DNA of 56,576 nucleotides, filler included, from Sphacelaria rigidula (Eukaryota): NCBI GenBank assembly GCA_964200075.2. It is 7 parts of 7 records of this genome, joined end to end, with 100 filler letters (N's around TTAATTAATTAA, not from the genome) between each part and the next. Parts side by side here need not be neighbours in the genome. Positions count along the whole stretch, not along the records: positions 8,098 to 16,094 come from CAXNAA020012703.1; 6 more parts are not named here. One strand, written 5' to 3'. Of this stretch, positions 2,051 through 40,250 are shown in pieces. The notes beneath the pieces were generated by a model. That model did no database searches. It was not told where the DNA came from and worked only from the letters and a program-made list of their open reading frames with translations. How positions within the stretch are numbered: the first letter of the stretch is position 1; each line of letters opens with the position of its first letter. Made by a program: the position numbers and the translations under genes.

Positions 2051-2805
2051 AACCCCATGAAGCCGTTTAGAGTTTCCGTGAACTGCCATCTGTATTTCGC
2101 CGCTGTTGTAATGACGTATGTCGCACCACAGGGGTGGTGATAATACCAAGGTCGTGTTCTGTAGGGCACGGTTTCCTATGTACGCGGGGTATTTTGTCGG
2201 GTATTTACCGTGCCCGACAGTTCTGTCATCTCTGTAAGATTTCCTACCGGTACCCGACAGGTCTGTAATCTCTGTAAGACCTTCATACCCGTACCTGATA
2301 GTTTGGTGAGTTCTGTAGGCCTCCCGAACGGTTACCGGGGGGCACGGGAATGCTCGTGATTATATACCCGGTTGCGGGTACGGTTTGCTGTGCAACCTCC
2401 ATACCCTACCCGACAGTTTCTGTGAGTTCTGTAAGCTTCCCATACCCTTACCCGACAGTTCTGTGAGTTCTGTACAAAACGTTTGCCCTAACCCGAGGGG
2501 CGGGTATGCCCTAAGAGAGTTACCCGATTGCCGCTACCGGTTTCCTGTAAACCTCCCATACCATACCCGACAAGTTCTGTAATTTCTGTAAGACTTTCAT
2601 ACCGGTACCCGACAGTTCTGTAAACTCTGTGAGACTTTCACACCGGTACCCGACAGTTCTGGAAGTTCTCTGTAAGGGATCTCATACCGTGCAGAACGTA
2701 CCCGTGCCTCACAGAACACAACCTTGGAATAAAGAGGCATCACACAAAATCTACGCAAGTAAGAGTAATACTTCAAGCTCATGCGTGATTGCTTAGCGTT
2801 CAACT

Positions 2806-3138
2806 TGTATCAGACCACGTCATCCAACGCGATAGCGACCAGCGACGTACTCGTTATACAAACGTTACAGCTTATAGCCTCTGCCAGACGATCTGGACAA
2901 CAAGAAGAGGACTTTCAACGAGGGACTCCTCCAGTAGCACTGGCCTCGTGCTCGACAAGTCCTTTCTTCTCACTTGTTATTATCACAGAGTGATCTCCAA
3001 CAGACCACATCACGAGCCAGCAGCAAGGGGCCACACATATAATGGTCATCAATCCAGGATCCCCCGTCCCCTGCCACTGCTCCAATCATGCATGCGATTA
3101 TACTGAAACCTACGGCTTGGTATGATTATTTGGCTACA
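2806..3138 (-). repeat. 3' LTR of the gypsy element
   Basis: Aligns with 7389-7646 (GCCTCTGCCAGACGATCTGGAC...TTTGGCTACA) and has TG...CA ends. Confidence 0.85.
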
Positions 3139-3240: not shown

Positions 3241-4095
3241 TCACCACGGACCTGTCCACGTGGACGTCAACTTTGGCGTCACAACTTGCCTACGAACATG
3301 GGCATACAATACGAAATCGCCAACTGCAAACTTGGGCAACACAGCCTCGCCCTGAGCAAGCTTGCGTTTGGTTTCGCGAGACACCGCGACAGCAGCTTGC
3401 ACTTCGATACAAAACCGCACTTGCTCGTCAACCACGCCTCGAACCTTGTCACGCAATGAATCAGCATCCAAGACATCGACGTTCCACTTGCCGCCAGTGA
3501 CAGAAACCAGCACAGAAAACGCTGTACGTGGCGCACGCCCAAACATCACACAATACGGAGTATTACGGTAGCGTTCACGAAACGAGGTATTCAACGCCCA
3601 CTGAGCGGCTGGTATAACATCAACCCATCCAGACACCGGCCGTCTCTGTTTCGACAAAATAGACCGCAACGCACGAATAACCTCTTTCACCATGTGTTCA
3701 CAAGCACCATTCGACCAAGGGGTATACGCAACAGCAAATTGGTGTTGCGCCTTCAGCGCGTCGCTCAGCTGCGCGCTCCCTCGATTCTTGAAGTGCGTGG
3801 TGGTATCACTAACCCAAACACGCGCCCCCCCCAGAGTCTTGCACCAATGGAGCGAGTGCGTAACCGTAACATCGGCGGTGCAAGCCTCGGTCGGCTCTGA
3901 GCAAACGAAATTGAACAAATCATCCATGATAACCAAAACGTACCGAAAACCATCCTCCTCAGGCAAACCATTAGCACCTTCACGTTCGCTACTTCCGACG
4001 TACAGAAAATCAAAGTGAACGACTTCACCTGGCGCAGTACCATGCACAGTATCACCATACGGACGAGGTACAATCTCACCAGCACGAGTGTCCAC
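3241..4095 (-). pseudogene. Retrotransposon integrase core and GPY/F region
   Basis: Motifs VHFDFL, VLVIMDD, WVSDTTTHF, YTPWSNGACEHMVKEV and WTGPW. Separated by a stop from the upstream HHCC zinc finger (AHMQSVGHRG...FVPQCL). Confidence 0.9.
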
Positions 4096-4098
4096 ATA

Positions 4099-5157
4099 TT
4101 ACAAACACTGGGGAACGAACTCGCAAACGTGGGAATCCATGTGAGGCCACACACACGTTTCTTTCAAACGAAACAGAGTCGGCGCCACACCACGGTGACC
4201 AACCGACTGCATGTGAGCGCGCACCATCAAGCAAGTTTGTAGAACCTTATCATCCGACGGAATCCACAAAACATCACTACTGCCAACACGCACACAAAAC
4301 CAACCATCGTCAGCCAAGGTAGCTTGATCGAAAGTCGTAGGAAAAGAATGAAAACCTTCGCCGACTGTTTTGCGCTGCGCGGTACGAATGACACCTAACA
4401 AGTGCAGCATATCATCGGCATCATACGGACTGTACACGGCAACAGAACAACCAGGCACGGTAGGAACCTTCACCCAGCGAGACAACAAACCTCCCCAACA
4501 ACTGTGCTCTCCGGTAATGTGTTCAATGACATACCGATATCGTTGTTGGGCTCCCAGCAACTCCTGCATGTTTCCTTGGCTTGACATTACCCTCGACGAC
4601 TGTTCCACTTGCGCGTTCACCGCCTGATAGTCGTTGGCCAAACCGACTGTGTGACTCTTCGGCACCGCCATCGCCGGACTCGCCCACACAACCTGAATAT
4701 TCCTAGACAACAAACCAAATGCCACCGAAACTGTGATGCATGAAGCAAGCCACACGGTCTTCACCGGATCGCAGCGGCGAGGCTTGGCCTTCACAGCCTC
4801 CTTCATCAGCTGCACGCGTGCTGGCGTATCACAACGCAGCGCACGACGAAACGTGTCTACTTGACGAGCCAAAATATCGCGCAGACAATGTGCAACATCG
4901 GCGCTTAGGTCCTTCTGCTCGGCCTGCCGCACACCCTCCTCGAGTGCACTTCCTCGTGCACCTGTCTCCTCGGCTGGGTCCATGAACATGTCCGGCCCCC
5001 GATCGACCAAGCGCTCCACCGCTTCATCAGCAAGGGCCTCTTCCTCGTTGGCGCTCTGGAATGACCGTATGGATACGATCACACGCCTTGCAACAAGATA
5101 GGTGAAATTTTCCACGCCGGTTTGCACCGGCACAGCCCGCGGACGTAACTTCTCCAA
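4099..5157 (-). pseudogene. pol remnant: RT N-terminus fused to the RNase H C-terminus and integrase Zn finger
   Basis: WASPAMAVPK...DYQAVN (RT start) runs directly into RYRYVIEHITGEHSCWGGLLSRW (RNase H end). There is no YxDD motif. Confidence 0.8.
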
Positions 5158-5163
5158 CGCCAG

Positions 5164-5790
5164 TTAATACAAACGAATCCCGAGCTCCTTCATCGTCGCC
5201 ATCCCAAGTAGAACAACGTCATCCCTACCGGGCACGACAGCAAAAGTGATGGGCCGCAACTCGACAGCCCCCCACGGCGTACGCACGTTAACAGTAATGG
5301 GCACCGTATCATGTGTAACCGTCACGGGAGAACCCGTGGCGGTCTGCGCCGTTTGCGGTCCATTTTCGAACGGAATCTGCAGCTGAGCGCCGCCAAACTG
5401 CAAAGACATTTGCTCAAGCAACCCCACATCGATCGACGAGAGAGCGGACCTGGAATAAAGAATAACGCGGGCCATGAACGAGCCTATAAAACCAGGCAAG
5501 GATAACTCTGCGCGTAAGCATTCAGCCTTGCGATCGACAGGTACCACGCCTGCCGAAGAACCCTGCTCTGTACCAAGAATCACCTGACGCCAGGGCTGCC
5601 CTCCAGCACTTGGCATCGATAGCTGCGAATCGTCGGTCCAACCAGACCAAGTCGCCGAATATGCAGACGGCGCTGTTACAACCGTTGCAGCAGAAAGGAA
5701 TGCACCAGACACGGATCCTGTCTGGCGGAGTGGTTGCGAGCTATTCGCTACAGCACTCCCCACCGAAGTATTTGCATTTCCTTCGTACAC
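5164..5790 (-). pseudogene. Retroviral-type aspartic protease region (degenerate)
   Basis: ILYSRSALSSI (decayed LDSG-like site) and VVLLGMATMKELGI, located between gag and RT. Confidence 0.7.
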
Positions 5791-5799
5791 TGTCCGCCC

Positions 5800-7192
5800 C
5801 TCTACGGATGAACCATAAGTTCCAGAGTCACCACCTGATGACGTAGTGAGAGAAGCACCATCGGAGGAACCACCGCCCGCCGCCGATTGCTTGCTACCGC
5901 GGCCTCCACGCCCGCGTCCCTGGTTGACACGATTCCGTCCACCGTGACGACCGCCCCGAGATCCTGATGCATCTCGTGCATTGCCCTGCGCAGCGCCTTG
6001 AGCGTGAACCTTGGGGCAGTCCTTAATCAGATGTCCGGTGTCACCGCAGTTGTAACACGCGCGAGTGGACGACTCTCGCGAAGACGGCTGCTGTTGCTGT
6101 TGCTGTTGCTGCTTGCGGCAAGTACTACTTGCACTTGCCGCAGAATCGCGCCGGCTACGTGCCTCAATAAATTTTCACTGGTCGGCGGCTTCAAATAATG
6201 TTTTGAACACCACCGTCGGGTTCTTTTTCCAGCCGTCAACATACGTTAGTACACTTCTAACATACGCCTTGAATGCAGGGGGCGAAATCCCGTCCACTAA
6301 AGCTATGGAAACCGACTCGGCCGGGCCTGGCAACCAACTCCTGTCCTCCGCACGGTATATGGCTTGCACCGTCAGGTTTTCTGCGGAAAACCTTTCCATA
6401 GCTGAACTGACCATCATCGCACGATTCTTGACAGAGTTCCCACAGCTTTGTGGCATAATAAGAACTCTACGCAGGTCTGCTGTAGCCCGCGCAGTGTCAT
6501 GCTTGCCGCCAGTTGTTGTGTACCCGGCATGCTGCTTCACGACATCAAGCAATTCGTCGGGGGCCATAGCCCGACGATCCTTGTACATATCTTCAAAACA
6601 CCGATGAACGTTTGTAGGGAGCTCACCCTCTCATGCCTCACAACTCCTTGAGAATTATCGAGATTCAAGCGCTGTATGTAATCAAGATATGCTACGAAAA
6701 AACGCGTGATGCCTGCTCTGTCCACACTTCGCCATACTTAAGCGGTTCAAGTGGGTCACCCAACACCAGCGGACACTTTTTACGATACTCTGCCCCAAAA
6801 CCAGCCTAAACGTGCCACGAAACAAATGGCCATACAGCGCCTGATGTTTCGTTTCAGGCTGGATGAAGCGCCTAATATTGGCAACATTGGCGAGAACGGA
6901 CCCAAGCGTGGAAATTCCCAGCTACTCGTTGCGCTCGACTTTCACCATTTCGATTCACGTGAAGATTCCTCCCAAAACCATGCACTTTGGGGGGGGGGGG
7001 GGGGGTTTTCTTAAAATGGTCGGCGAGGTTGCCGCCCCTTGGCCTTGCTCGTCTATGCTTTACAANNNNNNNNNNCCGCCCTCTTCATCCTTTCCACACT
7101 AGAAACCCCCCCCCCCAACGCCCGTGGGGGGGGGGGGGGGGGGGGGGGCTCTTGTAGAAAGTGTCAGCGATGCTGCCGCCGCTTGAGCCATG
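5800..7192 (-). pseudogene. gag remnant interrupted by a MITE
   Basis: Fragmented ORFs at 6175-6588 and 6537-6725. Removing the MITE and one TSD restores MAQAAAASLVLGDPLEPLK at the N-terminus. Confidence 0.65.
6772..7165. mobile_element. GACACTTTCTACGATAGCCCCC-TIR MITE with 4-bp TSD AGCG
   Basis: Ends GACACTTTTTACGA and TTGTAGAAAGTGTC, with AGCG on both sides. The same family occurs at 24292-24441, 38722-38964 and 40277-40384. Confidence 0.8.
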
Positions 7193-8776: not shown

Positions 8777-9271
8777 TAGGGAAGGCACCGTACCGAGCGT
8801 ACCCCCGATATTTACCGGGGTATCCCGTACCGTGGTATGCGTGGGTATCGTAGGTATGAGTTTTGAAAATACCTAATTGAGCGGGTACGGTAGGTACTGA
8901 AATCTCGACATGCCGTGGTATCGTAGGTATCGTAGATATGAAATATGAAAATACCCGATTGGGCAGGTACGCTAGGTATTGAAATCTCGAAATACCGTGG
9001 TATCGTAGGTATCGTGGACATGAGATATGAAAATACCCGATTGGGCAGGTACGCTAGGTATTGAAATCTCGAAATACCGTGGTATCATAGGTATCGTAGG
9101 TATGACAGATGAAAATACCCGATTGGGCAGGTACGGTAGATACTGGTATTTCGAAACACCGTGGTATCGTGGGTATCATAGCCATGTCAATTGAAAATAC
9201 CCGATTGGGTCGGTATCGGGAGGGTATGAGATGTTCCAAATACCAGTACCGGGTACCCGCCTTACCCTCTA
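8777..9271. mobile_element. Non-autonomous TIR element with an internal ~80-bp tandem array
   Basis: Ends TAGGGAAGGC and GCCTTACCCTCTA. Repeated unit AAATACCCGATTGGGCAGGTACG...ATACCGTGGTATCGTAGGTATCGT. A related copy lies at ~10250-10680. Confidence 0.6.
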
Positions 9272-10376
9272 TACCGACTTGAAAACTGCCATCCGGCAGG
9301 GCGGAGAAGCGTTTCAGGGCGTGTCTTGGCAAATATATATATACATCGAAAAAATATGGCGGTGAAATTGATTTTGGCGAAAATCACACATCTTTGTCGA
9401 GTTGGGTCCAATCAAATTTTCAAGCTTTCGATCGAGAAAAGACAAAAAAAAATCGTGAAACGGTACATGGTCACTCGTGTACAGTACAGACAGTCTGTAC
9501 TGCCTGCACTGCTTGCAAGCAGTGTGTCTTGAGTGCGTGTGTGCGTGTTTCGTACAGCAAGAGTTTCAAGAGGAGTGGGCAATGTGCAGTTCAGACAGCC
9601 CAGCGTTGTCAGTTATCTCTGCTGACAATGCGGCGTGAAAAAGACCCCAACAACGTGCAGCTTGGTACCACTTGCACTTTCCATGAGTGTGTACGCAACT
9701 CGGTTGCCGACCGTACCACGGAATTCCGTCGCTGATCCTACCATGGAAGAATATGCGCAAGTTTTCGCCATCAAAAAATGAACAAAGCATACCCAACTAC
9801 TGCAGCGTATCTCTCGCTGTGCTCAACACGTACTAGATGCTGCAGGGGCTGCGATGGCGGCCGAGATGTACTGGATGGAGTGAGCATGGTTCTGTGAACG
9901 AGTGTTATCTGGTGTGGTGGTCTGTAAGATAGGAGTGAAGTGCCGCTTCGTGCCTTTCGACCGCATGTTTTCGATCGGAAAAACTTAGCTTCTTTGTTTT
10001 GTAGTTTTCTCCGGACGCAACTAATTACAAATTTGGGTTAAAGCCTTCAAGCAGAGATGCGGTGGACCTATCAGATAAGGAAGAAAAAAAAATGACCGCA
10101 CTTCATACTACATAATGATGAGTTCATTCGAATTGGTGCAAACACGAAAATCAGGGGGAATCTGGGTAAACATTACTTGGGGAAACAAGACGTACCTGCT
10201 CCGATACCTTCTGGCCTTTCCATAATGAGTTAGGCTCAGCTGCTGCACCGTGGTGAGTGCATCGCGTCCGGTATTACCGGGTATACCCTCAGTATATACC
10301 GAGGTATCCCATACCGTGGTTTGCGTGGGTATCGTAGGTATGAGTTTTGAAAATACCTTACTGAGCGAGTACATGA

Positions 10377-10545
10377 ATTCATTGATTGATTGTCGCACTC
10401 TCACTGATCCCCCAGGGGTTCAGGCGTGGTCTCATGAAAGACGTCCCCGAGAAAAACGAAACTGAAACACGCTCTGAGAAAAAAAAAGAACAGAAAGAAA
10501 AAAAAGATCGGACAGAACGACATGGCAGACCAAGTCGTAACAAAA
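10377..10545 (-). repeat. Dispersed repeat with a (CAAT)n tail, probably a LINE/SINE 3' end
   Basis: A GACCACGGCTGGATCCCTGGGGGTCGGTTAAAGTGCGACAATCAATCAAT-like motif also occurs at ~19783-19845 (-) and ~21850-22050 (+). Confidence 0.55.
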
Positions 10546-11546
10546 ACGTTAGGTATTGACAGATGGAAATGCCGTGGTATCGTGGGTATCGTAGGTATGA
10601 CATTTGAAGATACCCGATTGGGCCGGTATCGGTAGGGTATGAGATGTCCCAAATACCGGTACCGGGTACCTTCCTCACGTACGGTACCTGTGGGGGTTCA
10701 CACAGTCACTGCGATGACACCTGCGGTACATAAAGTACATGTCCGCTTTTGACTACGTTCTTGCCCCGTCGAATATTTGATCATCGCCGTAACCCTTCTC
10801 CCAAACTATGATACGGCACGTGCATTTTTCTGGCGCTGTTGAAGAGCGACGCTGCTGCCCCCTCCCCACGCTCGCGCTCGTCCAAATGTGTACCAGAATA
10901 TGTTGCTCATGTGATGCTGCATGGCGATCGCTTTCTCGGTCGATCTTTATTTGTGGCACTTCGCTGTGCACAATATTTTCTACCTGACTGTAAGCTCATG
11001 TTTGTTACTTCGGAATATATTCATCTTCCATTCCTCTATGTTACGACATCCTTCAGCATCGGTATTGCGCTTTATGTTTGCCCCGTAACGTGATGGTCCT
11101 TCCATTGTAGTAGTCTGGTGCTTGATCTGCTGCCGATCCCCACTGCAGTAGCGTAGAGGACATCCCACTCGCTGGAATCATCTCGCAAGTTGGCGTCAGC
11201 TCACATGAAGCGTCTTCTGATTGAATATAGGCAGACGTTTTTCTCCGGGGTATGTACAGCAATATCGAGGTCGTTTGTTTTGCAAAAGCTTTCAACACGC
11301 TTTGACCCACGGCTAACGAGACATTTTCCGCTGCCTTGATATTTTTGCTACCATAAGCAGTAAGTTGTCGGAGGAGCTGACGACCGACGTCGCCAGAAGG
11401 TGCATCAGCAGGGGCTGTTCCAAGCCATCTCACGGTTCACTGGGCTACAAGGCGGGGTTCGCTCCAAGCACGCGAGCGTGGGACTGGTAGATATAGCGAA
11501 ACGAGTGTGCGGTGACGAAGACTGCTCCGCGCGGCCGTGGTAAGGT

Positions 11547-13775
11547 GTGGCGGGAAGCACGAAGGCGGAATTCTGCTCCAAGCATGCCAGGGCGAGAATG
11601 GTGAACGTAAGAAGCAAGATATGCGGCTACAAGGGCTGCTCCGCGCAGCCGTCGTATGGTGCGGCGGGAAGCACGAAGGCGGAGGTTTGCTCCAAGCATA
11701 CCAGGGCGGGAATGGTGAATGTGGTGAGTAAGATGTGTGGCTACAAGGGCTGCTCTACGCTGCCGTCGTATGGTGTGGCTGGAAGCAGAAAGGCGGAGGT
11801 CTGCTTCGAGCATACCAGGACAGAAATGGTGCGTGTAAGAATCAAGATGTGCGGCTACGAGGGCTGCTCCACGCTGCCGTCGTATGGTGTAGCGGGAAGC
11901 AAGAAGGCGGAGTTTTGCTCCAAGCATGCCGGGGCGGGAATGGTGAACGTGGTAAGTAAACGGTGCGGCTATGAGAGCTGCTCTACCCGTCCGTCGTATG
12001 GTGTGGCGGGAAGTACAAGGGGAGAGTTTTGCTTCAAGCATTCCAGGACGGGAATGGTGCGTGTAAGAATCAAGATATGCGGCTACGAGGGCTGCTCCAC
12101 GCGGCCGTCGTATGGTGTGGCGGGAAGCAAGAAGGCGGAGTTTTGCTCCAAGCATGCGAGGGCGGGAATGGTAAATGTGACGCACAAAATATGCGGTTAT
12201 GAGGGCTGCTCTACGCTGCCGTCGTATGGTGTGGCGGGAAGCAAGAAGGCGGAGGTCTGCTCCAAGCATGCCAGGGCGGGAATGGTGGACGTGGTAAGTA
12301 CGATGTGCGGCTATGAGGGCTGCTCTACGCAGCCGTCGTACGGTGTGGCGGGAAGTACAAGGGGAGAGTTTTGCTCCAAGCATGCCAGGACGGGAATGGT
12401 GAATGTGGTGGGTAAAATGTGCGGCTACGAGGGCTGTTCCACGCAGCCGTCGTATGGTGTGGCAGGAAGCAAGAAGGCGGAGTTTTGCTCCAAGCATGCC
12501 AGGACGGGAATGGTGAATGTGGTGAGTAAGAGGTGCGGCTACGAGGGCTGCTCCACCCAGCCGTCGTTTGGGGTGGCAGGAAGCAAGAAGGCGGAGTTTT
12601 GCTCCAAGCATGCCCGGGCGGGAATGGTGAATTTGAAGCACAAAATATGCGGCTATGAGGGCTGCACTACGCTGTCGTCATATGGTGTGGCGGGAAGCAG
12701 AAAGGGGGAGGTCTGCTTCAAGCATACCAGGACGGGAATGGTGCGTGTAAGAATCAAGATGTGCGGCTACGAGGGCTGCTCCACGCAGCCGTCGTATGGT
12801 GTGGCGGGAAGCAGAAATGCGGAGTTTTGCTCCAAGCATGCCGGGGCGGCAATGGTCAATGTGGTGAGTAAACGGTGCGGCTATGAGGGCTGCTCTACGC
12901 AGCCGTCGTATGGTGTGCCGGGCAGCACAAGGGGAGAGTTTTGCTTCAAGCATGCCAGGACGGGAATGGTGAATGTGGTGGGTAAAATGTGCGGCTATGA
13001 GGGCTGCTCCACGCAGCCGTCGTATGGTGTGGCAGGAAGCAATAAGAGGGAGTTTTGCTCCAAGCATGCCAGGGCGGCAGTGGTCAACGTGGTGAGTAAG
13101 AGGTGCGGCAAGAAGGGGCGTTCCAATCCACGTGTCGACAGGGAGGACACCTTCGTTGAGGACACGCTTTGCCAACAGCATGCTAGTGCACACAGCACAG
13201 CTACGAGTTTCGATACCACGAAGCTCAACACTGGTGAGGCCACCCTCGACCGTAGCGCAACAGAGGGTAATGGAGGAAGCGTTGCTGATGTACGAGGAGT
13301 GAAGCGCAAGCGCGCAGCCCTCTTGGGTCCTGGTGCAAACGACAGCACAGGTGCTCGTCGTAGTTTGTGCGCCGGTTCCAGGCAGGGGAAGATACTATCC
13401 CTCTCGGGACGTCCACCCTTGCTCCCGGGACACCCACCTTCGAGGGCTGATGATGAGGTGTCTTTGCGGGCAGGAGCAAGAGCAGGAATGAAGGTAGAGC
13501 TGGCAGTCCCGTCTCCTACACACGGTGACGATGGGAAAAGGAAGAGTGGCGAGCAGGCTGCCCTGTCGAGCGACTGGAGCAGCGAACGTGGTAGTGGTGG
13601 ATTTATCAGCAGTTGTGGCGGGGGAACGGGGGGGCTCCGTTGTTCGCCGGCTGTGGTACCTGGATGCATGGACACATCTGATGATGTGGCTTTTGAAGGA
13701 GAAGATGAGGATTCGAACGTGAAGTTGGAGCTAGGAGTGCATAGTCCTTCTCCTCGGACGTCCGATACATGGTAG
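11547..13775 (+). CDS. EsV-1-7 cysteine-repeat protein: 13 complete 38-aa CCCH repeats plus a ~200-aa disordered tail; 5' end damaged
   Basis: Unit CGYEGCSTQPSYGVAGSKKAEFCSKHARAGMVNVVSKR matches the EsV-1-7 repeat pattern of brown algae and their phaeoviruses. The ORF-track start is GTG and the first in-frame ATG is at 11598. An in-frame TAA lies just upstream at 11541. Confidence 0.85.
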   Translation: MAGSTKAEFCSKHARARMVNVRSKICGYKGCSAQPSYGAAGSTKAEVCSKHTRAGMVNVVSKMCGYKGCSTLPSYGVAGSRKAEVCFEHTRTEMVRVRIKMCGYEGCSTLPSYGVAGSKKAEFCSKHAGAGMVNVVSKRCGYESCSTRPSYGVAGSTRGEFCFKHSRTGMVRVRIKICGYEGCSTRPSYGVAGSKKAEFCSKHARAGMVNVTHKICGYEGCSTLPSYGVAGSKKAEVCSKHARAGMVDVVSTMCGYEGCSTQPSYGVAGSTRGEFCSKHARTGMVNVVGKMCGYEGCSTQPSYGVAGSKKAEFCSKHARTGMVNVVSKRCGYEGCSTQPSFGVAGSKKAEFCSKHARAGMVNLKHKICGYEGCTTLSSYGVAGSRKGEVCFKHTRTGMVRVRIKMCGYEGCSTQPSYGVAGSRNAEFCSKHAGAAMVNVVSKRCGYEGCSTQPSYGVPGSTRGEFCFKHARTGMVNVVGKMCGYEGCSTQPSYGVAGSNKREFCSKHARAAVVNVVSKRCGKKGRSNPRVDREDTFVEDTLCQQHASAHSTATSFDTTKLNTGEATLDRSATEGNGGSVADVRGVKRKRAALLGPGANDSTGARRSLCAGSRQGKILSLSGRPPLLPGHPPSRADDEVSLRAGARAGMKVELAVPSPTHGDDGKRKSGEQAALSSDWSSERGSGGFISSCGGGTGGLRCSPAVVPGCMDTSDDVAFEGEDEDSNVKLELGVHSPSPRTSDTW

Positions 13776-15627
13776 ATGGCACCATTCCTTGTACCGCTCT
13801 CGTTGCTCAGATGGCCCATGTATTTCGGTCTATCGGTGTGTGCTCACGTATGTTGTGAGCGGTCAGAAACGATCATTGGTCGTCGCGGTGTCTTCTCGTC
13901 CACAATGCGAGGCAGTGCTTGAGTTTGATGGGGTGCTGATATAACGGGTTTCCCCAGATTTTAGAGTCTGGCGTTCGATCGAGAGTAAGGACCCAAGAAA
14001 TATGAATTCCTGATCAATTCATTCATTGACTGGTGTCTGTTGGGGGATACTTCATCGAGTCAGGCTAGGGCAGGCTTGAATGAGAGCGCTTCGCCGTGGG
14101 ATGAATCGAATGTATACTCTGATCGCATTGGCCTCGTCAACATGCATATATACAGAACTGTGGATTTCCAGAATTGGTCGATTCATGTCTGCAATAGTTT
14201 TGGTTCCAACATGCTCGTCTAGGCCTCATATGCTTCGTGTTCCAGCTTGCCACTGGAGGCTCTGATATCCCCGGGTAGGATCTCGTCGTGGAGCTGTAAG
14301 TACACGACATCGTCACAGGCAACAATATACATAGAGCGTGAACAAATGTTCAAGTTCGAGGTAATCATCAAACTCGCTCTCGCGATCAACTCTCGACCCC
14401 CAATGTGGCGAAACGCGGTTATATCACGACGCCACGTTCCACCAGATTCTCGTCGAGGCGCAGTCGTCATACCTGTGTGGACCATATCTTTAGGTGGCAG
14501 TTTTACGGAGGGCTAGGGAGCGTGTATGTACCATAGTTGTAGGCCACCTGATTCACTGGGGTCCCACTGTGTGATTTGTGACGTGTTTGTTCTGGCTGGT
14601 GGTACAATCGTACTTTTTACACTTCATCTCCTCATAGGGTCGTTACCTAGATAAACAGCACGTGGGGCATATTCCATATACCATGGAACTCCACGTCAGA
14701 GCGTTTGTTTTGTACCATACGGATATACCAGACTGTGCCTCAGGATTCGTGCTGTATAATTGGACATGACACTCTAATTGCGAAAATTGGGAGGACACCA
14801 TGATGCCACCTCGCCACTGTGATCAAACCGGTACACCTCACAACCTCTTACAGTGGAACTGAATATCCTAATCCATCTCAATCTGCGGATGACTGGACAC
14901 GCAAGATGTAGACGACAGTGGGCGCAATATGCGGTTGTGTGTCACTCACGTTGACGGCATGACAGTGCGGTGATGCGCTGGCCCTCGACAATCGCACACT
15001 GACAACCCGGATGGTATAAAGTGTTCGGATTCACTTATACCCCCTCGGTCTTGAAAACAATATGAACAAGCTTGGGAGAAAACGCAGTCTGACTCCAGCT
15101 CTTTTCTTTATTTTCTGAACAGTATTATTTTTCTTCGGTTCCGTCGCTTTCTACCGATCCACCCCAGACGGAGGTTTTGCAAGCTTCCCACAAAACATGG
15201 TTCTCCCACCCCAGCAATAACATCTCGAAATCACCGCCGTCACTTGGATCCTCCGATCAAAAGCTTTCCTATCTTCAGTTGGAGCATGTCTGCTGCTGGT
15301 GGTGCCTCCCAGTGGCCAAAGCCCAGGAATTTCAACGTTTGGAATAAGGTGCGGTGATTTGGTATCCCAGGGACCTACTTTCCCCAAAGCTGTGTTTTCC
15401 CATACGGTCAAAACATGTCGGATATCGGAATGCAATTTGTTTGGCGTGTCGTAGTTGCCATTAGCTCCGCGTAGGTGCAATAATGCAATCATATTCTGAA
15501 GACATGTGAGTGTGGATACGAATAATTCTGTATCCGGGTTATCGTCTTATGCAACGTTCCATTCTCAATCTTGACGATCGACTGTTGACAGTGGATTCTC
15601 GAAAATGGGGTTGAAAAAACAAATGAG

Positions 15628-24400: not shown

Positions 24401-25396
24401 AAACCATGCACTTTCTTGAGGGGGCTATCGTAGAAAGTGTCCCTGGTGCAAACCAGAAAAGACACTCCATCGCCGCGATGGCCATACTCAATTCCCAAAC
24501 GCAGCAGGATGAGAAGTCAAATAGGCTGACTACTTCTGGCATCATTTTTACGAATACGAAGCAGATGTGACAACCCATCACGACAAACATGCATCGGCGA
24601 CAGCCAAGCAATGCTTAATGCTCTCAACGCGATGAACACGTCCAACGGCACACAGTAGAGGAACAGCTTTCCTACCTACATACAATGTTGCCCCGTTCGG
24701 CGAGATGTCCGAATCCGAAGCAACATGCAACTCGTGTCAACCAAGTCATTTACTCGGTAGACCACGTACTGCACTTTTCAGCCTACTCTCGACAGCGCCG
24801 ATCGTCTTCTTGTCCAAACACGCACAACGACACCACGCATGTACAGCTGCGACAAACTCAGCCGGTACGGCAATCCGTGACCTGTTCAATGTACGAATGG
24901 AGTCGTATGCATTCACATCTTCGAGAAGGCAGATCGCGTCCCGCGCAACTACCGCGCAAGCTCGCTCCAGGTGTCTACCTCAGCATACTCTTCAGGTGCC
25001 TCCTTAGCATGATTCTCGAGTATAATAGGTATTTGGAAGGCCGTGGCGAAGAGAGCAGGTTGTGTCGACTAACACCTGCACGCGCTTGATGGACGAAAGA
25101 CCTTTGGGAAATAAACAATATCTGCACAAGATGTGAGAACGCGCCAAGTTGTGGCTCCCATACTTGATTGCCAAATCTGCGTTGTATGCTTAAATTTGCA
25201 TCCATTAGGAGTCGACAGACGGGCCCTGGCCATTCTTTGTTCGACACCAGTTGCATCTCCACACATGATGTTGACGCCCCCAACAAAGCGATCAACCAAA
25301 GAGCAGATGAAAGTTGGCACAGCCCAATATCCTACACAGTCTTGAATGGATACCCGCAAGGCAACAAGAGTCCTTTGGCAACCACCACCACAGCGC

Positions 25397-27526
25397 TCAC
25401 ACACTGCCATCACGAGTAGCAGCGAATACTCGTGTTGCAGTAAAGCCAGGAAAATGGTGCGATGAGATGCTCATCTCTGACTTCACGTTCGTCACCCCCT
25501 CGCACACCAGAACGCCCGAGGTAGTCATGCTGCGGGCAAATTGCTCCGTGAATATTTCACCAGTCGCACGAGTGAGCTCAGCTCCCTCTGTGGTGCTTCT
25601 CTTCGAAGCCTCACCATGGTTGGACTGCCGCATTCTGCCGATGCGTGACCGTCTTGGATATTCTTCACTTTCATTCGACGCTTGCACAGCTATCTCTAGC
25701 TTCACCTTTTTCGCGCAAATCGCCGATTGTTCAAAACGGCAAGCTGCTGATCGCACATTTCTCCTGGAGCGGACGCTCGCCATCTCGTCCAGGGCGTGCT
25801 GTGAGCAGAAATCCACCTTCTTGCTTCCCGCCGACCCAAACGACGCTGTCTTGAAGCAGCCCCCTCTGGAGCACGTCTTGTTCTTGACACCCACCATTCC
25901 GTCTTCGGCATGCTGTAAGCAGAACTCCGCCTTCTTGCTTCCCGCCAACCCGAACGATGGTATCGTGAAGCAGCCCTCTCTGCAGCACGACTTGTCCTTG
26001 ACATCCACGATCCCGTCTTCGGCATGCTGTGAGCAGAACTCCGCCTTCTTGCTTCCCGCCAATCCAAACGATGGTATCTTGACGCAGCCCTCTCTGCAGC
26101 ACGTCTTGCTGACGATATTTACCATCCCGTCCTGGGCGTGCTGTGCGCAGAATTCCGTCTTCTTGCTTCCCGTCAACCCGAACGACGGTATCATGAAGCA
26201 ACCCTCCCTGCAGCACGTCTTGTCCCTAACATCAACCATCCCGTTCTCGGCGTGCTGTGAGCAGAACTCCGCCTTCTTGCTTCCCGCCGACCCAAACGAT
26301 GGTATCTTGAAGCAGCCCTCTCTGCAGCACGACTTGTCCTTGACACTAACCCTCTCGTCCTCGGCGTGCTGTAAGCAGAACTCCGCCTTTTTGCTTCTCG
26401 TCAACGCAAACGACGCTATCTTGAAGCAGTCATCTCTGCAGCACACCTTGTCCCTAACATTAATCATTCCGTCCTCGGCGTGCTGTAAGCAGAACTCCGC
26501 CTTCTTGCTTCTCGTCAACGCAAACGACGCTATCTTGAAGCAGCCGTCTCTGCAGCACGTCTTGTCCCTAACATTAAGCATCCCGTCCTCGGCGTGCTGT
26601 AAGCAGAACTCCGCCTTCTTGCTTCCCGCGGACCCAAACGACGCTATCTTGAAGCAGCCCTCTCCGCAGCACGTCTTGTTCTTGACATCCACCATTCCGT
26701 CCTCGGCATGCTGTGAGCAGAACTCCGCCTTCTTGCTTCCCGCCGACCCAAACGACGCTATCTTGAAGCAGCCCTCTCCGCAGCACGTCTTGTTCTTGAC
26801 ATTCACCATTCCGTCCTCGGCGTGCTGTGAGCAGAACTCCGCCTTCTTGCTTCCCGCCAGCCCAAACGACGCTGTCTTGAAGCAGCCCCTTCTGGAGCAC
26901 GTCTTGTTCTTGACATTCACCATCCCTTCCTCGGCGTGCTGTGAGCAGAACTCCGCCTTCTTGCTTCCCGCCAACCCAAACGACGGTATCTTGAAGCAGT
27001 CGTCTCTGCAGCACGTCTTGCTGACAACAATGACCATCCCGTTCTTGGCATGCTGTGAGCAGAACTCTGCCTTCTTGCTTCCCGCCAGCCCAAACGTCGC
27101 CCGCCTGCAGCAACGCTCCCTGCAGCACGTCTTCTCCCGGATATAAACCATGTCCTCATGCGCGTGCTGTGAGCAGAACTCCGCCTTCTTGCTGCCCGCC
27201 AACCCCAAATAGGCTCGCCTGGAGCAGCCCTCTCCGCAGCACGTCTTCTGCCTCACATGAATCATCCCGTCCTCTGTGTGCTGTGAGCAGAACTCCGCCG
27301 TCTTGCCTCCCGCCAACCCAAACGACGGTATTTTGAAGCAGCCCTCTCTATAGAACGCCCTGTTGTTGGCATTAACCATCCCGTCCTCGGCGTGCTGTGA
27401 GCAAAACTCTGCCTTCCCGCTTCCCGCCAACCTTGAAGAAGCTCGCCTGGAGCAGTCCTCCCTGTAGCATGCCTTGCGTTGAACATCCACCATCCTGTCC
27501 TCGGCGTACTGTGAGCAGAACTCCAC
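25397..27526 (-). CDS. EsV-1-7 cysteine-repeat protein: 15 38-aa CCCH repeats plus a ~120-aa tail
   Basis: Unit CCREGCFKIPSFGLAGSKKAEFCSQHAEDGMVNVKNKT in an uninterrupted 709-codon ORF. The ORF-track start is GTG and the first in-frame ATG is at 27493, so an upstream exon is possible. Confidence 0.88.
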   Translation of the reverse strand: MEFCSQYAEDRMVDVQRKACYREDCSRRASSRLAGSGKAEFCSQHAEDGMVNANNRAFYREGCFKIPSFGLAGGKTAEFCSQHTEDGMIHVRQKTCCGEGCSRRAYLGLAGSKKAEFCSQHAHEDMVYIREKTCCRERCCRRATFGLAGSKKAEFCSQHAKNGMVIVVSKTCCRDDCFKIPSFGLAGSKKAEFCSQHAEEGMVNVKNKTCSRRGCFKTASFGLAGSKKAEFCSQHAEDGMVNVKNKTCCGEGCFKIASFGSAGSKKAEFCSQHAEDGMVDVKNKTCCGEGCFKIASFGSAGSKKAEFCLQHAEDGMLNVRDKTCCRDGCFKIASFALTRSKKAEFCLQHAEDGMINVRDKVCCRDDCFKIASFALTRSKKAEFCLQHAEDERVSVKDKSCCREGCFKIPSFGSAGSKKAEFCSQHAENGMVDVRDKTCCREGCFMIPSFGLTGSKKTEFCAQHAQDGMVNIVSKTCCREGCVKIPSFGLAGSKKAEFCSQHAEDGIVDVKDKSCCREGCFTIPSFGLAGSKKAEFCLQHAEDGMVGVKNKTCSRGGCFKTASFGSAGSKKVDFCSQHALDEMASVRSRRNVRSAACRFEQSAICAKKVKLEIAVQASNESEEYPRRSRIGRMRQSNHGEASKRSTTEGAELTRATGEIFTEQFARSMTTSGVLVCEGVTNVKSEMSISSHHFPGFTATRVFAATRDGSV

Positions 27527-27699
27527 GTTTCTGCAGGCATAACGTTTTCACCCTCGTACAGTATCCGACGACGGCCGTTCCAAATAACACTTACTGCTCA
27601 GATTCACCTACTTTGCCATTCATTCCACTGCTCCACCTGACGACAGGGTAAACACGAAAGTAACATGCACATGTGATCAGTGTCTAGTTTCACAGATAT

Positions 27700-36621: not shown

Positions 36622-39600
36622 TCAAAACGGTGCGTTGACATTATGTGTGCGATCGATGTTATGTTGACTTTCGCGGCGGAGGCCTTTGGACTTGAGTCGC
36701 TGTAGACACCAAGATCCTTTCGGTGCGGACGGACTTGTGGTGTAAAGCTCTGGGCGGAGTTTGAGGTGTACGGGTCCGGGGTCATCGATGCAGCGCACGG
36801 TGCATACCCGTCTCTGGGCAATGAAGGTCAAGGGCGTGAATGGGCGTGGGTGATTTCAAAGGGCAGCGTTTTACAATGCCCCAGATCCGTTTTGGATCGA
36901 GAAAAGCGGTCTTGGCACTCCAATAAAACATCGCTCAATTCTTTGATTACAGCGGGTTCCGAACCGGGTTCATGTAGGTCAAAGTTGATGTCACGTAAAT
37001 GGCATGGAAGTTGATCCCAAATGTGCAAGAAACTTGTCCGAGATTCTGGCGATAGGCGTTGCAGCACTTCAGCAGGAGGTTCGGACGTTGACGGTGCAGG
37101 GTCCACGGTGTGCATACATGATGGAGACGAAAAGGTTACGTCGAAGTAAGGCTCATCGACGCAGTTGACAGAACCGTCCGTCGGAGGCGCCGAGTTGGGC
37201 GTCGAAGGTTCAGTGGTACATGTTCCAAGTGGAATGTGCATGAGGGAAGCAGCAGCAATATCAAAGACATCTCCGGGTCCCAAATTAGCATGACCCGTGA
37301 GGGGCAAAAGCTGTTTTCCGGCGGAGACAAAGTGTTCTGTGCCGGCAGGCGCACCAACTCGAGGAAACATTTCAGCGAGGTAATGTCCCGTAAGAGCAGG
37401 CATGCCATTTCGGCGAACGAGGGCAACTTCTAGCAGTTGGGGATCATCGGAGAGGGTAACACCAGCAGTACCATCGTATCGGAGGTGATAAGCAGCTCCG
37501 GTAGCTTGTTCATGTTTTTGGTAGGCCAAGGCGCCGTGAAGAGTACCGAAATGTTCAATGTTGAGTTCTCCACGAGGCGCAGACTGTGGCGATAATGGTG
37601 GTAGCGTGCGGTAGGTGCGTTGATCAAACCGCATGTAACTATCTCGGCCCATGAGTAAGGCGTGAGCCATGGTGCTGTCGAGGACAACACATGCCCAGAC
37701 TGCACGGCTGGCGGGAACGAGTTGTGTTGTGAAAGAATTGCAAACTGAGACGAACTGATATTCGTGTGGTCAAAGGTGCGGTGGAATCACCAAAGCCGCC
37801 CCATACTCGAGGTTTGGTGGTGATTTCGCAAGCTGCTGGAGCAGCGCCAACGTTTTTCATATGTTCCCACATTGATTCATGAATAAATGTTTGTGGGCTG
37901 CCGCTATCTAACAAAGAGGCACAATTGTCAGTCGTGGTTGCGTATGGTTCACAATGAAGCGCTACGCGAGTAGTAAAAGTGGCAAGATCAACAGACACTT
38001 TACCGCCGACAAGATCTGGACCATGCTCAGCCAAGGTGAATTGATCGGAATCAGTAGTGCTGACGGCGAAAATGAAGGGCGGGTGATCCGCCGGGGATTC
38101 AACTTGCTCACCAGAAAGTTTGATGGATGATGTGTGATCCCCAGAGTGAGCATAGCTCGTCTGGTCATTAGCAATTTCATATATGACTGTGTTGGGAAGG
38201 CAGGGATCAACGTCTAAAGTAGATCCATGTTGTTCAGTGTAGTCCGCAGAGGAGGTGAAAATATCCGAAATATCTGATTTGGATTCTTCTCGGACACTTG
38301 ATAAATTCATCGAGCTCAAAGTCGTCGCATTTTGGAGAGAGTGAGGTCGAGATTTTCCACTCGAGGGAGGTGTACGTGTTGATGCGTACGCTTCAGTAGG
38401 GGCATGTTCACGGGGCTTCCTCTCTCGCCGTGACAAAGGGCGGGAAACTTCCAAAGTATTTGGGGAAAGCGCAACTGCGTCCAGTTGAGTGGATTGGGTC
38501 AGCATCGGGGCATGCTCGGGCGAAACTTGTGGACTGTCCGCTGGCAAGCTTGGCTGAGGAGTCATCGCCGAAGGTATAGTATGATGGTTTATGTGAGAAC
38601 CAGTCACGGGTAGCTTCGCATGCTGCAATGAACTCGAAGAATGAACTCGTTCGACCTGGGTGGGTGTTACATGGTCCGAAGCGGTCAAATTCGGACCAGC
38701 GACACTTGAACTAGTCGAGTGAACACTTTCTACGATAGCCCCCTCCCAAAACTAGCTAAAAGTGTCACGAAACAAATGGCCATACAGCGCCCAATGTTCG
38801 GGTTCAGGCTGAAGCGCCTCATATTGGCGACATTGGCTAGAAAGAATCCAAGCGTGGGAATTGCCAGCTTCTCGTTGTGCTCGGCTTTTCCCATTTCGAT
38901 TTACGTGAAGATTGTGCCCTCTAAAACCATGCACGTTTGTGGGGGGGCTATCGTAGAAATTATCAGTGAATTACACTACTGTCTGTGCGTGCGGTCGCTG
39001 AGGAAGCTTTTGCCTCAGAGACGGGCGGATGGTGTTGCCACACCTCAGACTTTCGCTTGGTTCCGGAGGACCAAGTCCAGACCCTAGGGTAGAGCTAAGT
39101 TGTGAGTCAACGCAACTGTTACGCTGTGTGCGAAGAGGTGAAGACGGGGGTCGATATGAGCGGCTGTCATCAGTACTCGTGTATAGTGCCGGGGAGGTTG
39201 AGCGAGAAAGTTTTGTCGCTCGTTCCGCGGTTGGTGCTGAAATAGTCTTCGCGTGTGCGGTCGGCGGCGCCAAAGACGTAAAAACGCCGGCGTCGGCATG
39301 TTGTCATGGATCGGTATGATCAGTCATAAAGGAACCAGGGCTTCTGGCGTTGGGGTTCGAGTGATTGTGATTCGGCCCCGTGCGCTGGTATCTATCGGCG
39401 TAATTCCGTTGACGGTGAGATGAACTCTCTCTTCGCCGGGAGCCAGAGTTGTCGTAGTTGTTGGAGCGACTGTCGCGATTTGAGCGAGTGTTGTCGCGGT
39501 CGTTGAAAGGGGGCCGAGAATGAGGGTTGGATGTGCGATATTCACGCATGCGTTTCTGCCATCGGCGCCGTGCTGGCTCATTGTCTTGCAGCTCAGAGTT

Positions 39601-40250
39601 CATGTGGTCAAAAGAGTTGATACGAGGGCGAGTATAATTGTGCATACTGTGCCCTTGGGTGTCACAATTGATGCAATTATTTGCGTGGCGGCTGAAGGTC
39701 TCGTGTCTGGCAGCAGACAAGAGGAGGGGATTCCACAGATGTGGGTCATCTGTAGTAAACGCAGAGGTAGATACAGTGTACACATCATCCCAAGTCTCGA
39801 TGGAGTACGGCCATCCGTCAAAATTGGCGCTGAACGGATCTCTTTTGTTTGCAGCGCTCATGACGGAGCCGGCCACGGAGGCAGGCATTCACGAGGAACG
39901 AAGCGAAGTGTAAGGCCGGCTACTGGACCCTGAAGGTGTCGAAGAAGGCGCAGAAGCAGACTGTGAACGAACTGAAGCATACTTGTCGCCGCGAATGGCT
40001 GGCGTCAAAATATTTTCTTGATGGACAAACGCACTCAATACCGCATCCACAGAGGGATAAGGCACTTCGCGGTGGGCTAAAGCACCTGAAAACAGTGATG
40101 GCATTAGAGCTAGGGACTGCTCGGACATACTATTCCTTGCATATGATTGACACATTGCGTCCGACGGGCCAGTCTGGCGACCTACTCCCTTAGTACTGGA
40201 AACGAGAAGCTTGAATTCTCGGAGGTAGTCCGCGCGAAGGGGACATCGGT
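36622..40250 (-). mobile_element. Degenerate gypsy-like retroelement: gag, protease and RT start, then a large deletion
   Basis: Decayed Zn knuckle CINCDTQGHSMHNY (ORF 39304-39888), protease site LLDSGSPQTFI (ORF 37639-38688) and pre-RT motif DRFSRSKTDLGHCKTLPFEI (ORF 36828-37670). No RT core or integrase follows. LTRs were not identified, so the boundaries are approximate. Confidence 0.75.
38722..38964. mobile_element. GACACTTTCTACGATAGCCCCC-TIR MITE with 4-bp TSD AGTG
   Basis: Complete 243-bp copy. Excising it restores the reading DSSVIHSTSSSVAGPNLTASDH into the protease ORF. Confidence 0.85.

Follow-up and report, generated by a model that had tools for sequence, protein, structure and literature searches.

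An EsV-1-7 repeat array of Sphacelaria rigidula, probably belonging to a nuclear DNA-binding poly-zinc-finger protein

The window, that is the whole stretch of 56,576 nucleotides of Sphacelaria rigidula DNA that was analysed, consists of seven joined parts, and parts standing side by side are not necessarily neighbours in the genome. The subject here is array 1, a tandem repeat within the part taken from CAXNAA020012703.1 (8,098-16,094). It is the repeat region of a nuclear gene in the expanded brown-algal EsV-1-7 family. Tandem Repeats Finder, run on the window, detected a 114-bp period at 11506-13109 with 14.1 copies, 81 % matches and a score of 1931. A stop-to-stop frame on the plus strand, 11544..13775, comprising 743 codons (2232 nt), is open across 13 units and a tail. 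The features of the gene, in positions of the window, are as follows.

11359..11360, plus strand: AG dinucleotide, a possible splice acceptor opening the array-bearing exon (sequence and contig ends; a weak hint only).
11377..11379, plus strand: CTG codon opposite Met1 of the paralogue P0006, possibly a lost start codon (tblastn).
11401..11507, plus strand: decayed unit -1, its reading frame broken between 11454 and 11463 (three-frame translation; P0006 alignment in two frames).
11508..11621, plus strand: unit 0, with an in-frame TAA (11541-11543) at the Y12 position of other units (translation; P0006 alignment).
11622..13103, plus strand: 13 intact EsV-1-7 units of 114 bp or 38 amino acids (aa) each, C-x4-C-x16-C-x2-H, starting at 11622 + 114 × i with i = 0..12 (translation).
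13104..13217, plus strand: degenerate terminal unit, C1, C23 and H26 kept, C6 changed to R (translation).
13218..13772, plus strand: non-repeat C-terminal tail (alignment with 10 Sphacelaria rigidula paralogues).
13290-13316, plus strand: VRGVKRKRA motif, resembling a nuclear localisation signal (NLS-like), conserved in paralogues as VRGxKRKRA.
13485-13508, plus strand: GMKVELAV motif, GMKVE kept in paralogues.
13680-13712, plus strand: acidic patch in the tail (paralogue alignment).
13713-13739, plus strand: SNVKLELGV motif, SNVKLE kept in paralogues.
13773-13775, plus strand: TAG stop codon (sequence).
13776..14459, plus strand: probable 3' untranslated region (contigs of run X1 at 13710-14459 and of run X2 at 13710-14290, 0 differences; the kind of run is only guessed).

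An earlier note on this DNA had described array 1 as 13 exact 114-bp units with a fixed scaffold and a few variable slots, and had proposed a nucleic-acid recognition array. Translation and the repeat search bore out the 13 units far beyond chance. The repeat reaches further than described, with the rear part of unit 0 at 11544-11621 and the degenerate last unit from 13104. All eleven residues named as invariant, C1, G2, Y3, C6, S11, G13, G16, S17, E21, C23 and H26, were present in 13 of 13 units, and V32 joins them. The variable strings were found exactly as reported: Q, L or R at column 9, F or V at column 22, S or F at column 24, KKA, TRG, RKA, RKG, RNA, NKR or TKA at columns 18-20, and NVVS, RVRI, NVTH, DVVS, NVVG or NLKH at columns 33-36. 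Columns 27 (A/T/S), 29 (A/T), 30 (G/A/E) and 38 (M/R/I) vary too. The diversity of single slot columns inside array 1 does not exceed 1.8 bits; the string of 12 slots taken together is different in each of the 13 units. The basic character of the array was likewise confirmed, the 13 units having a net charge of +44 and an isoelectric point of 9.44.

The array 1 frame matched the Pfam family EsV_1_7_cys (PF19114) in 14 stretches with an E value of 1.3e-208 and 674.9 bits, the cut-off being 25, and all 27 units of arrays 1 and 2, the latter a second array in the window, matched the family when taken singly. In a protein search with array 1, 7999 candidates were scored and 275 of them reached E <= 1e-5. 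The six top-ranking ones were unnamed Sphacelaria rigidula proteins with 54-65 % identity, collinear with the array 1 frame through the last units and the tail. Unit counts for the family refer to 605 Cys3His (CCCH) units from the best 120 of these 275 homologues, among which a spacing of 38 aa was the commonest (329 cases versus 34 for 39 aa). A model of six units also matched the virus protein EsV-1-7 (Q8QNQ2) with an E value of 8e-25 and 48 % identity. A scan of a viral contig collection with the unit alignment gave four pattern matches, none of which was confirmed, and an Atlas search with four array 1 units gave no usable hit. Two kinds of apparent partner domains in the homologues were discarded: Zf_WRKY19, CoV_NSP13_ZBD, zf-MIZ and others were sub-threshold echoes on the repeats themselves, and ELO in the homologue P0049 occupies a separate region of what looks like a merged gene model.

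The cited passage of Denoeud et al. counts 2018 EsV-1-7 proteins in 31 genomes and defines the orthologues of IMMEDIATE UPRIGHT (IMM) by an N-terminal domain unique to IMM. In the cited passages the family is greatly expanded in brown algae, clustered in the genomes, possibly of giant-virus origin and 'perhaps a novel zinc finger'; its function, apart from the phenotype of the IMM mutant, is described there as unknown. The EsV-1-7 literature covered yielded no statement of a ligand or of a nuclease-like fusion. Within this family the array 1 locus is an ordinary further member, possibly damaged at its 5' end, and nothing unusual in itself.

Upstream of the intact units the alignment to P0006 breaks. 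Residues 1-27 of this paralogue match 11377-11454 in a frame shifted against that of the array (tblastn), and residues 30-89 align from 11463 on in the array frame. The TAA in unit 0 lies inside contigs of four of the four runs compared with 0 differences, hence an assembly error in the window does not account for it. The next in-frame ATG is 11598-11600, M31 of unit 0, and any array 1 product would start there, with a predicted length of 725 aa; M31 of a unit is also where several annotated Sphacelaria paralogues begin. Runs X1 and X2 have contigs of 390 and 385 letters that place only 231 letters on 11360-11590 and end just after the AG dinucleotide, which is a weak hint of a spliced transcript, the RNA nature of the runs X1 to X4 being only guessed. 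The contigs of runs X5 and X6 (400 letters) lie wholly within 11191-11590. X1 and X2 do not cover 10749-11162 and 14475-15500, which X5 and X6 cover; the uncovered part is not interpretable. Contig depths of thousands over array 1 are sums over many paralogous contigs and not copy numbers.

Array 1 could therefore be read as a paralogue that is in decay or without function, set in repeat-rich surroundings, and whose variation reflects no present function. We consider this unlikely. The CTG in place of the ATG of the paralogue, the frameshift and the TAA all fall into the first two units, the TAA in the contigs of all four runs; retroelement remnants flank the locus in the window, and birth and death within clusters is, according to the cited passage, the way in which the family evolves. 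These signs are opposed by the frame of 743 codons, open through 13 units and the tail, by intact tail motifs, by the paralogues that also begin at M31, and by the ratio of nonsynonymous to synonymous changes (ω) between units, which was 0.37 for the whole unit and 0.15 for the scaffold.

The region behind the 13 intact units, a tail of 223 aa (about 220), is common to Sphacelaria rigidula paralogues, in which a degenerate unit also precedes it. It matched no Pfam family, and as a search query it found only three Sphacelaria proteins. VRGVKRKRA we take to be NLS-like, and MKVE and VKLE we take to be two putative ψ-K-x-E motifs, which would fit the acceptor consensus for the small ubiquitin-like modifier (SUMO). 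These two hydrophobic-K-x-E motifs are conserved in the tails of array 1, of array 2 and of 10 Sphacelaria paralogues. On the sequences compared, the array 1 subfamily, which shares the tail with the NLS-like motif, appears so far only among Sphacelaria rigidula proteins.

The scaffold of array 1 was compared with that of the family on 372 unique units. Conserved columns were C1, C6, C23, H26, M31, K37, G5, P10, Y/F12, G/N13, G16, F/Y22, A/K27, G30, V32, N/D33 and V34, and basic residues were common at columns 18, 19, 37 and 38. Columns 2 and 3 were hypervariable (3.0-3.6 bits) and columns 11, 17 and 21 clearly variable (2.5-2.8 bits). Of the proposed fixed scaffold C1, C6, C23, H26, G16 and, as G or N, column 13 are conserved in the family; the invariance of G2, Y3, S11, S17 and E21 is specific to array 1 and reflects a young array rather than design, as those columns vary family-wide.

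Which columns distinguish the units of one protein was assessed on 65 independent homologous proteins with 338 units, the window excluded, by the ratio of mismatches within proteins to mismatches between proteins. Columns 9, 33, 35 and 36 reached 0.85-0.92, nine equally variable columns (2, 3, 4, 7, 14, 15, 25, 28 and 29) only 0.60-0.72. The pattern was present in both subsets, 29 proteins with a virus-type tail and 36 without. The bootstrap difference between the two sets was 0.21 (0.16-0.26), a P-like figure that is optimistic because columns 9, 35 and 36 were chosen after overlapping data had been seen; the set, partly picked post hoc, nevertheless overlaps the list given beforehand in the earlier note. 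Columns 18, 20 and 22 (0.50-0.66) were homogeneous inside proteins and not unit-specific. Four of the proposed slots, 9, 33, 35 and 36, accordingly individualise units throughout the family, and 18, 20 and 22 do not.

Nucleotide identity between the units of array 1 ranged from 74 to 96 %. They fall into the subtypes {2,4,10}, {7,12} (96 % nucleotide identity), {5,9} and {1,3,8,11,13}, and two-unit blocks are duplicated, (2,3) resembling (10,11) and (7,8) resembling (12,13). Array 1 grew by recent duplication of single units and of two-unit blocks. Amino-acid distance at the 12 slot columns correlated with silent divergence in the remaining codons (Mantel r 0.477, reached in 0 of 5000 permutations). 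At columns 9, 24, 27, 28 and several more, a single nucleotide separates the alternatives from the consensus codon, e.g., CAG/CTG/CGG at column 9, TCC/TTC at column 24 and TTT/GTT at column 22. Among the 605 homologue units RVRI occurred 0 times, NVVG once, NVTH twice and NLKH once; columns 33-36 carry very many different strings, the commonest in 27 of 605 units, and column 9 uses 20 residues. Since its strings are nearly absent elsewhere and column 9 is so diverse in the family, the small alphabet is private to array 1. It consists of identity by descent plus one-step codon neighbours, and the notion of a discrete, reused alphabet was not supported.

Values of ω were obtained from tree-based counts across units. 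In array 1 the slots proposed earlier had an ω of 0.65-0.83 (P under neutrality 0.89), the other non-ligand columns the scaffold value given above. The corresponding figures for array 2 were 0.62 for the whole unit, 0.87-0.90 for the slots (P 0.78) and 0.49 for the other non-ligand columns. Columns 33, 35, 36 and 38 gave 0.40-0.89 in array 1 (P 0.73) and 1.6-1.8 in array 2 (P 0.008, post hoc), and for columns 9, 35 and 36 together ω came to 1.17 (P 0.32) in array 1 and to 1.6 (P 0.027, post hoc) in array 2. Purifying selection acts on the scaffold of array 1, and its variable slots evolve about neutrally.

AlphaFold2 modelled six units from an alignment of 59 rows with a mean predicted local distance difference test (pLDDT) of 78 and a predicted template modelling score (pTM) of 0.32. 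Short strands recurred in every unit around positions 12-14, 22 and 31-33; a helical turn of three residues at 24-26 was present in two of the six. The model contained no helix of four or more residues, no helical solenoid and no confident geometry between units. This suggests small zinc mini-domains on a string rather than a solenoid, and no superhelix of the kind envisaged appeared. The unit layout may be treble-clef-like; no PDB match backs any fold. A model of a single unit (pLDDT 52.8) was unusable, and its contrast to the six-unit model says nothing about unit packing, as different alignments were used.

A repeat-per-base(s) nucleic-acid code, in which a small discrete alphabet at fixed slots makes the target readable from the unit order as in TALE or PPR proteins, is very improbable on these results. 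Several observations are in its favour: the strict 38-aa period in the 120 homologues, the columns 9, 33, 35 and 36 that individualise units family-wide, the 12-slot string that differs in all 13 units, the ω of 1.6-1.8 (post hoc) in array 2, the fusion of the module to nuclease-like, transposase and primase partners described below, and closely related virus-like contigs that share a flanking gene and differ in unit order. The alphabet, however, is not common to the arrays, the slots of array 1 are linked into subtypes by descent and do not evolve above neutrality, columns 18, 20 and 22 are homogeneous inside proteins, the variable patches of a viral array with their linked silent changes form a mosaic of two or three unit types, and the model shows neither a solenoid nor a helix of four residues.

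Partner domains hint at DNA binding. Both motifs of a C-terminal domain, RPD...ExDE..H...R(F/Y/W)NPD, were present in 56 of the best 120 homologues, 0 of them named brown-alga proteins. The residues E, D, E, H, R, R, N, P and D are invariant and RPD is near-invariant. In the length class of 108-347 aa, 1910 of 1965 candidates matched the domain, mostly together with PF19114 and unnamed, and none had a name or Pfam family for the domain. Aligned to the nuclease-fold families DUF559 and DUF2726, its motifs fall into one register, albeit weakly (hhalign P 7.5e-4 to 8e-3), which suggests that the domain may be nuclease-like. Relatives were found neither in the phage collection nor in PHROGs. Ten loci labelled as bacterial or archaeal metagenome-assembled genomes carry the domain with 34-50 % identity; these may be misbinned virus contigs and contributed no annotation. 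Among giant-virus proteins 29 matched the six-unit model at E <= 0.001; EsV-1-7 is one of them, four bear the name Endonuclease and one is called DNA primase. The cited part of PMC12477816 reports a Tc1/mariner transposase of Ectocarpus that has an EsV-1-7 domain at its N-terminus.

Two metagenome loci, L001 (2507-4411) and L003 (2495-3916), encode virus-like proteins with an EsV-1-7-type array and the RPD...ExDE..H...RFNPD domain, their versions of the domain being homologous (E 3e-17). A C-x4-C...C-x2-C finger with a faint A20-like echo (E 0.45) precedes the viral C-terminal domain. The array of L001 varies in the unit-distinguishing places described above, and the linked silent changes in its variable patches show it to be pieced together, mosaic-like, from two or three types of unit. 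L001 and the related contig L002, compared around 2372-3007, have an identical-looking upstream gene (RING/IBR-like) and a different order and type of units; since they share the flanking gene but differ in unit order, the array changes faster than its flank.

The array might instead be a zinc-stabilised scaffold for a protein-protein contact or another non-nucleic-acid ligand, with a variable surface that is simply unconstrained. The near-neutral slots of array 1, the A20-type finger beside the viral C-terminal domain and a family function described as unknown in the cited papers are compatible with this explanation. We judge it unlikely in view of the repeated fusion to DNA-acting partners and the strongly basic array, with basic residues common family-wide at columns 18, 19, 37 and 38.

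For the EsV-1-7 module we favour DNA binding as the likeliest role, with a probability moderately above even, because of the fusions to DNA-acting partners, the charge and the NLS-like motif. Array 1 as a whole is best explained, with a confidence just above the midpoint, as a probably nuclear DNA-binding poly-zinc-finger protein. Each unit would be a zinc-bound mini-domain of knuckle, hairpin and short helical turn, and the units would follow one another like beads on a string, much as C2H2 fingers do. The protein would be nuclear and bind DNA via the basic array; the surface positions 9, 33, 35 and 36 may give each unit a contact preference of its own. It would act as a regulator of chromatin or transcription and not as the reader of a discrete per-base code. 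Of the recognition array first proposed, the fixed-length Cys3His array and DNA as best-supported ligand class have survived, the TALE/PPR-like code has not. The narrower claim, a DNA-binding poly-zinc-finger with units putatively individualised at 9, 33, 35 and 36, is testable.

A number of results weigh against DNA binding or against parts of the argument for it. The array 1 copy may be dead after start-codon loss, frameshift and nonsense codon in its first two units. A search of the PDB by sequence gave chance-level rows only (plastocyanin, E 1.2; an adaptor protein, E 0.75), and a search by fold found no related solved structure. For the RPD...ExDE..H domain the hhalign probability against DUF559 and DUF2726 was only 5-25 %, the control DUF559-DUF2726 reaching 96.7 %, its Pfam matches to Hjc and DUF2726 stayed below the cut-off, and its neighbours in the language-model Atlas lay in DUF559 clusters at 0.84, below 0.9. 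'Endonuclease' is the label of the depositors in the virus records, whichever domain earned it. To these come the optimistic bootstrap figure for the chosen columns and the ω of about 1.6 in array 2 (P 0.008-0.027, post hoc), which hints at diversifying selection and not pure drift.

A wider proposal, which we regard as a long shot, would make EsV-1-7 arrays a further natural class of modular DNA-recognition arrays, in which 38-aa units read fixed short DNA steps via positions 9, 33, 35 and 36. In giant viruses they would direct transposases and an endonuclease of PD-(D/E)xK type (homing-like) to their targets; brown algae would have recruited and multiplied them for regulation in the nucleus, possibly against mobile DNA.

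The window is nuclear DNA of a eukaryote, and the rest of it holds one further gene of the family.

25397..27547, minus strand: array 2, another EsV-1-7 array gene, in convergent orientation to array 1 along the window, 14 CCCH units of 38 aa and a shorter related tail (repeat and frame analysis, Pfam).

It matched PF19114 with an E value of 1e-215 in 15 stretches, and its 114-bp repeat spans 25780-27524 (Tandem Repeats Finder). Its consensus differs by CC at columns 1-2, an acidic E-D at 28-29 and a nearly fixed KKA at 18-20. The net charge is +23, and the tail keeps VKLE- and NVK-type motifs. A long frame on the minus strand opposite array 1, 11445..12677 (410 aa), is periodic and of low complexity; this frame and the plus-strand frame 25311..27146 (611 aa) were rejected as genes, being by-products of periodic sequence. 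Over 9300-10748, just upstream of the array 1 gene, contig depths in DNA-like runs add up to tens to hundreds of thousands, and this stretch is for that reason a highly repeated genome element. Retroelement remnants occupy 3241-6630 on the minus strand, where successive broken frames encode a gag zinc knuckle, an integrase core and a zinc-binding domain of integrase type, the gag and integrase matches lying at 3241-6174; long frames at 36828-39888 (minus strand), listed as retroelement remnants, had no Pfam match. Repeat arrays of 41/82 bp are located at 565-1016, 2206-2676 and 8828-9209. A frame of 466 aa at 43450-44850 on the minus strand matched no Pfam family and contains long tracts that are acidic or rich in serine or glycine, and overlapping frames on opposite strands there suggest compositional bias. 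Between 7066 and 48580 there are one short N run, at 7066-7075, and paired N runs of 44 bases, six pairs in all, which recur every ~8.1 kb; none is near array 1, and they look like masked stretches and not assembly gaps.

The EsV-1-7 family is among the largest in brown algae and includes the developmental regulator IMM, and the cited papers give no biochemical function. Two leads result from the analysis. The module is repeatedly joined to DNA-acting domains, which makes DNA binding the first candidate function; and columns 9, 33, 35 and 36, not the full list of slots proposed earlier, are the candidate specificity positions. Modular DNA reading, if true, would explain the expansion of the family and offer a new scaffold for DNA targeting.

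Among known systems, IMM and the EsV-1-7 family are closest to array 1, with the C-x4-C-x16-C-x2-H module, the 38-aa period, a brown-alga gene and a second member 11 kb away in the window. IMM has five units according to the cited passage, array 1 has 13. Unlike IMM, the array 1 gene has no non-repeat N-terminal domain in sight, only decayed units upstream of the array, and its tail was found only in Sphacelaria rigidula proteins. The giant-virus-type proteins (L001, L003 and the 56 of 120 homologues) agree with array 1 in module, period and unit-individualising columns, but the array 1 gene lacks their RPD...ExDE..H domain. The Cys-Cys-Cys-His spacing is that of the first zinc site of the SBP domain; the whole of array 1 aligned to positions 1-34 of 75 of the SBP profile (PF03110) with 26.3 bits, below the cut-off of 27, and one of 27 single units matched (E 0.075). 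A second zinc site is absent, and no SBP structure was found by sequence. TALE, PPR and PUF repeats share the strict unit length and the confinement of variation to a few columns. They are helical solenoids without zinc, whose code residues are common across proteins, whereas array 1 has no predicted helix of four or more residues, strings private to the array and linked slots. C2H2 poly-zinc-finger arrays such as KRAB-ZNF differ in ligand set and spacing and in their beta-beta-alpha fold, which array 1 does not have; at E <= 0.01 its Pfam matches included no C2H2 family, and it does not have the C-x2-4-C-x12-H-x3-5-H spacing. Slot diversity in array 1 is low, and its slots do not evolve above neutrality. 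In outline, both consist of tandem zinc modules of fixed length with basic linkers and few surface positions that vary between units, both undergo rapid birth and death in clusters, and the low pTM of array 1 fits beads on a string.

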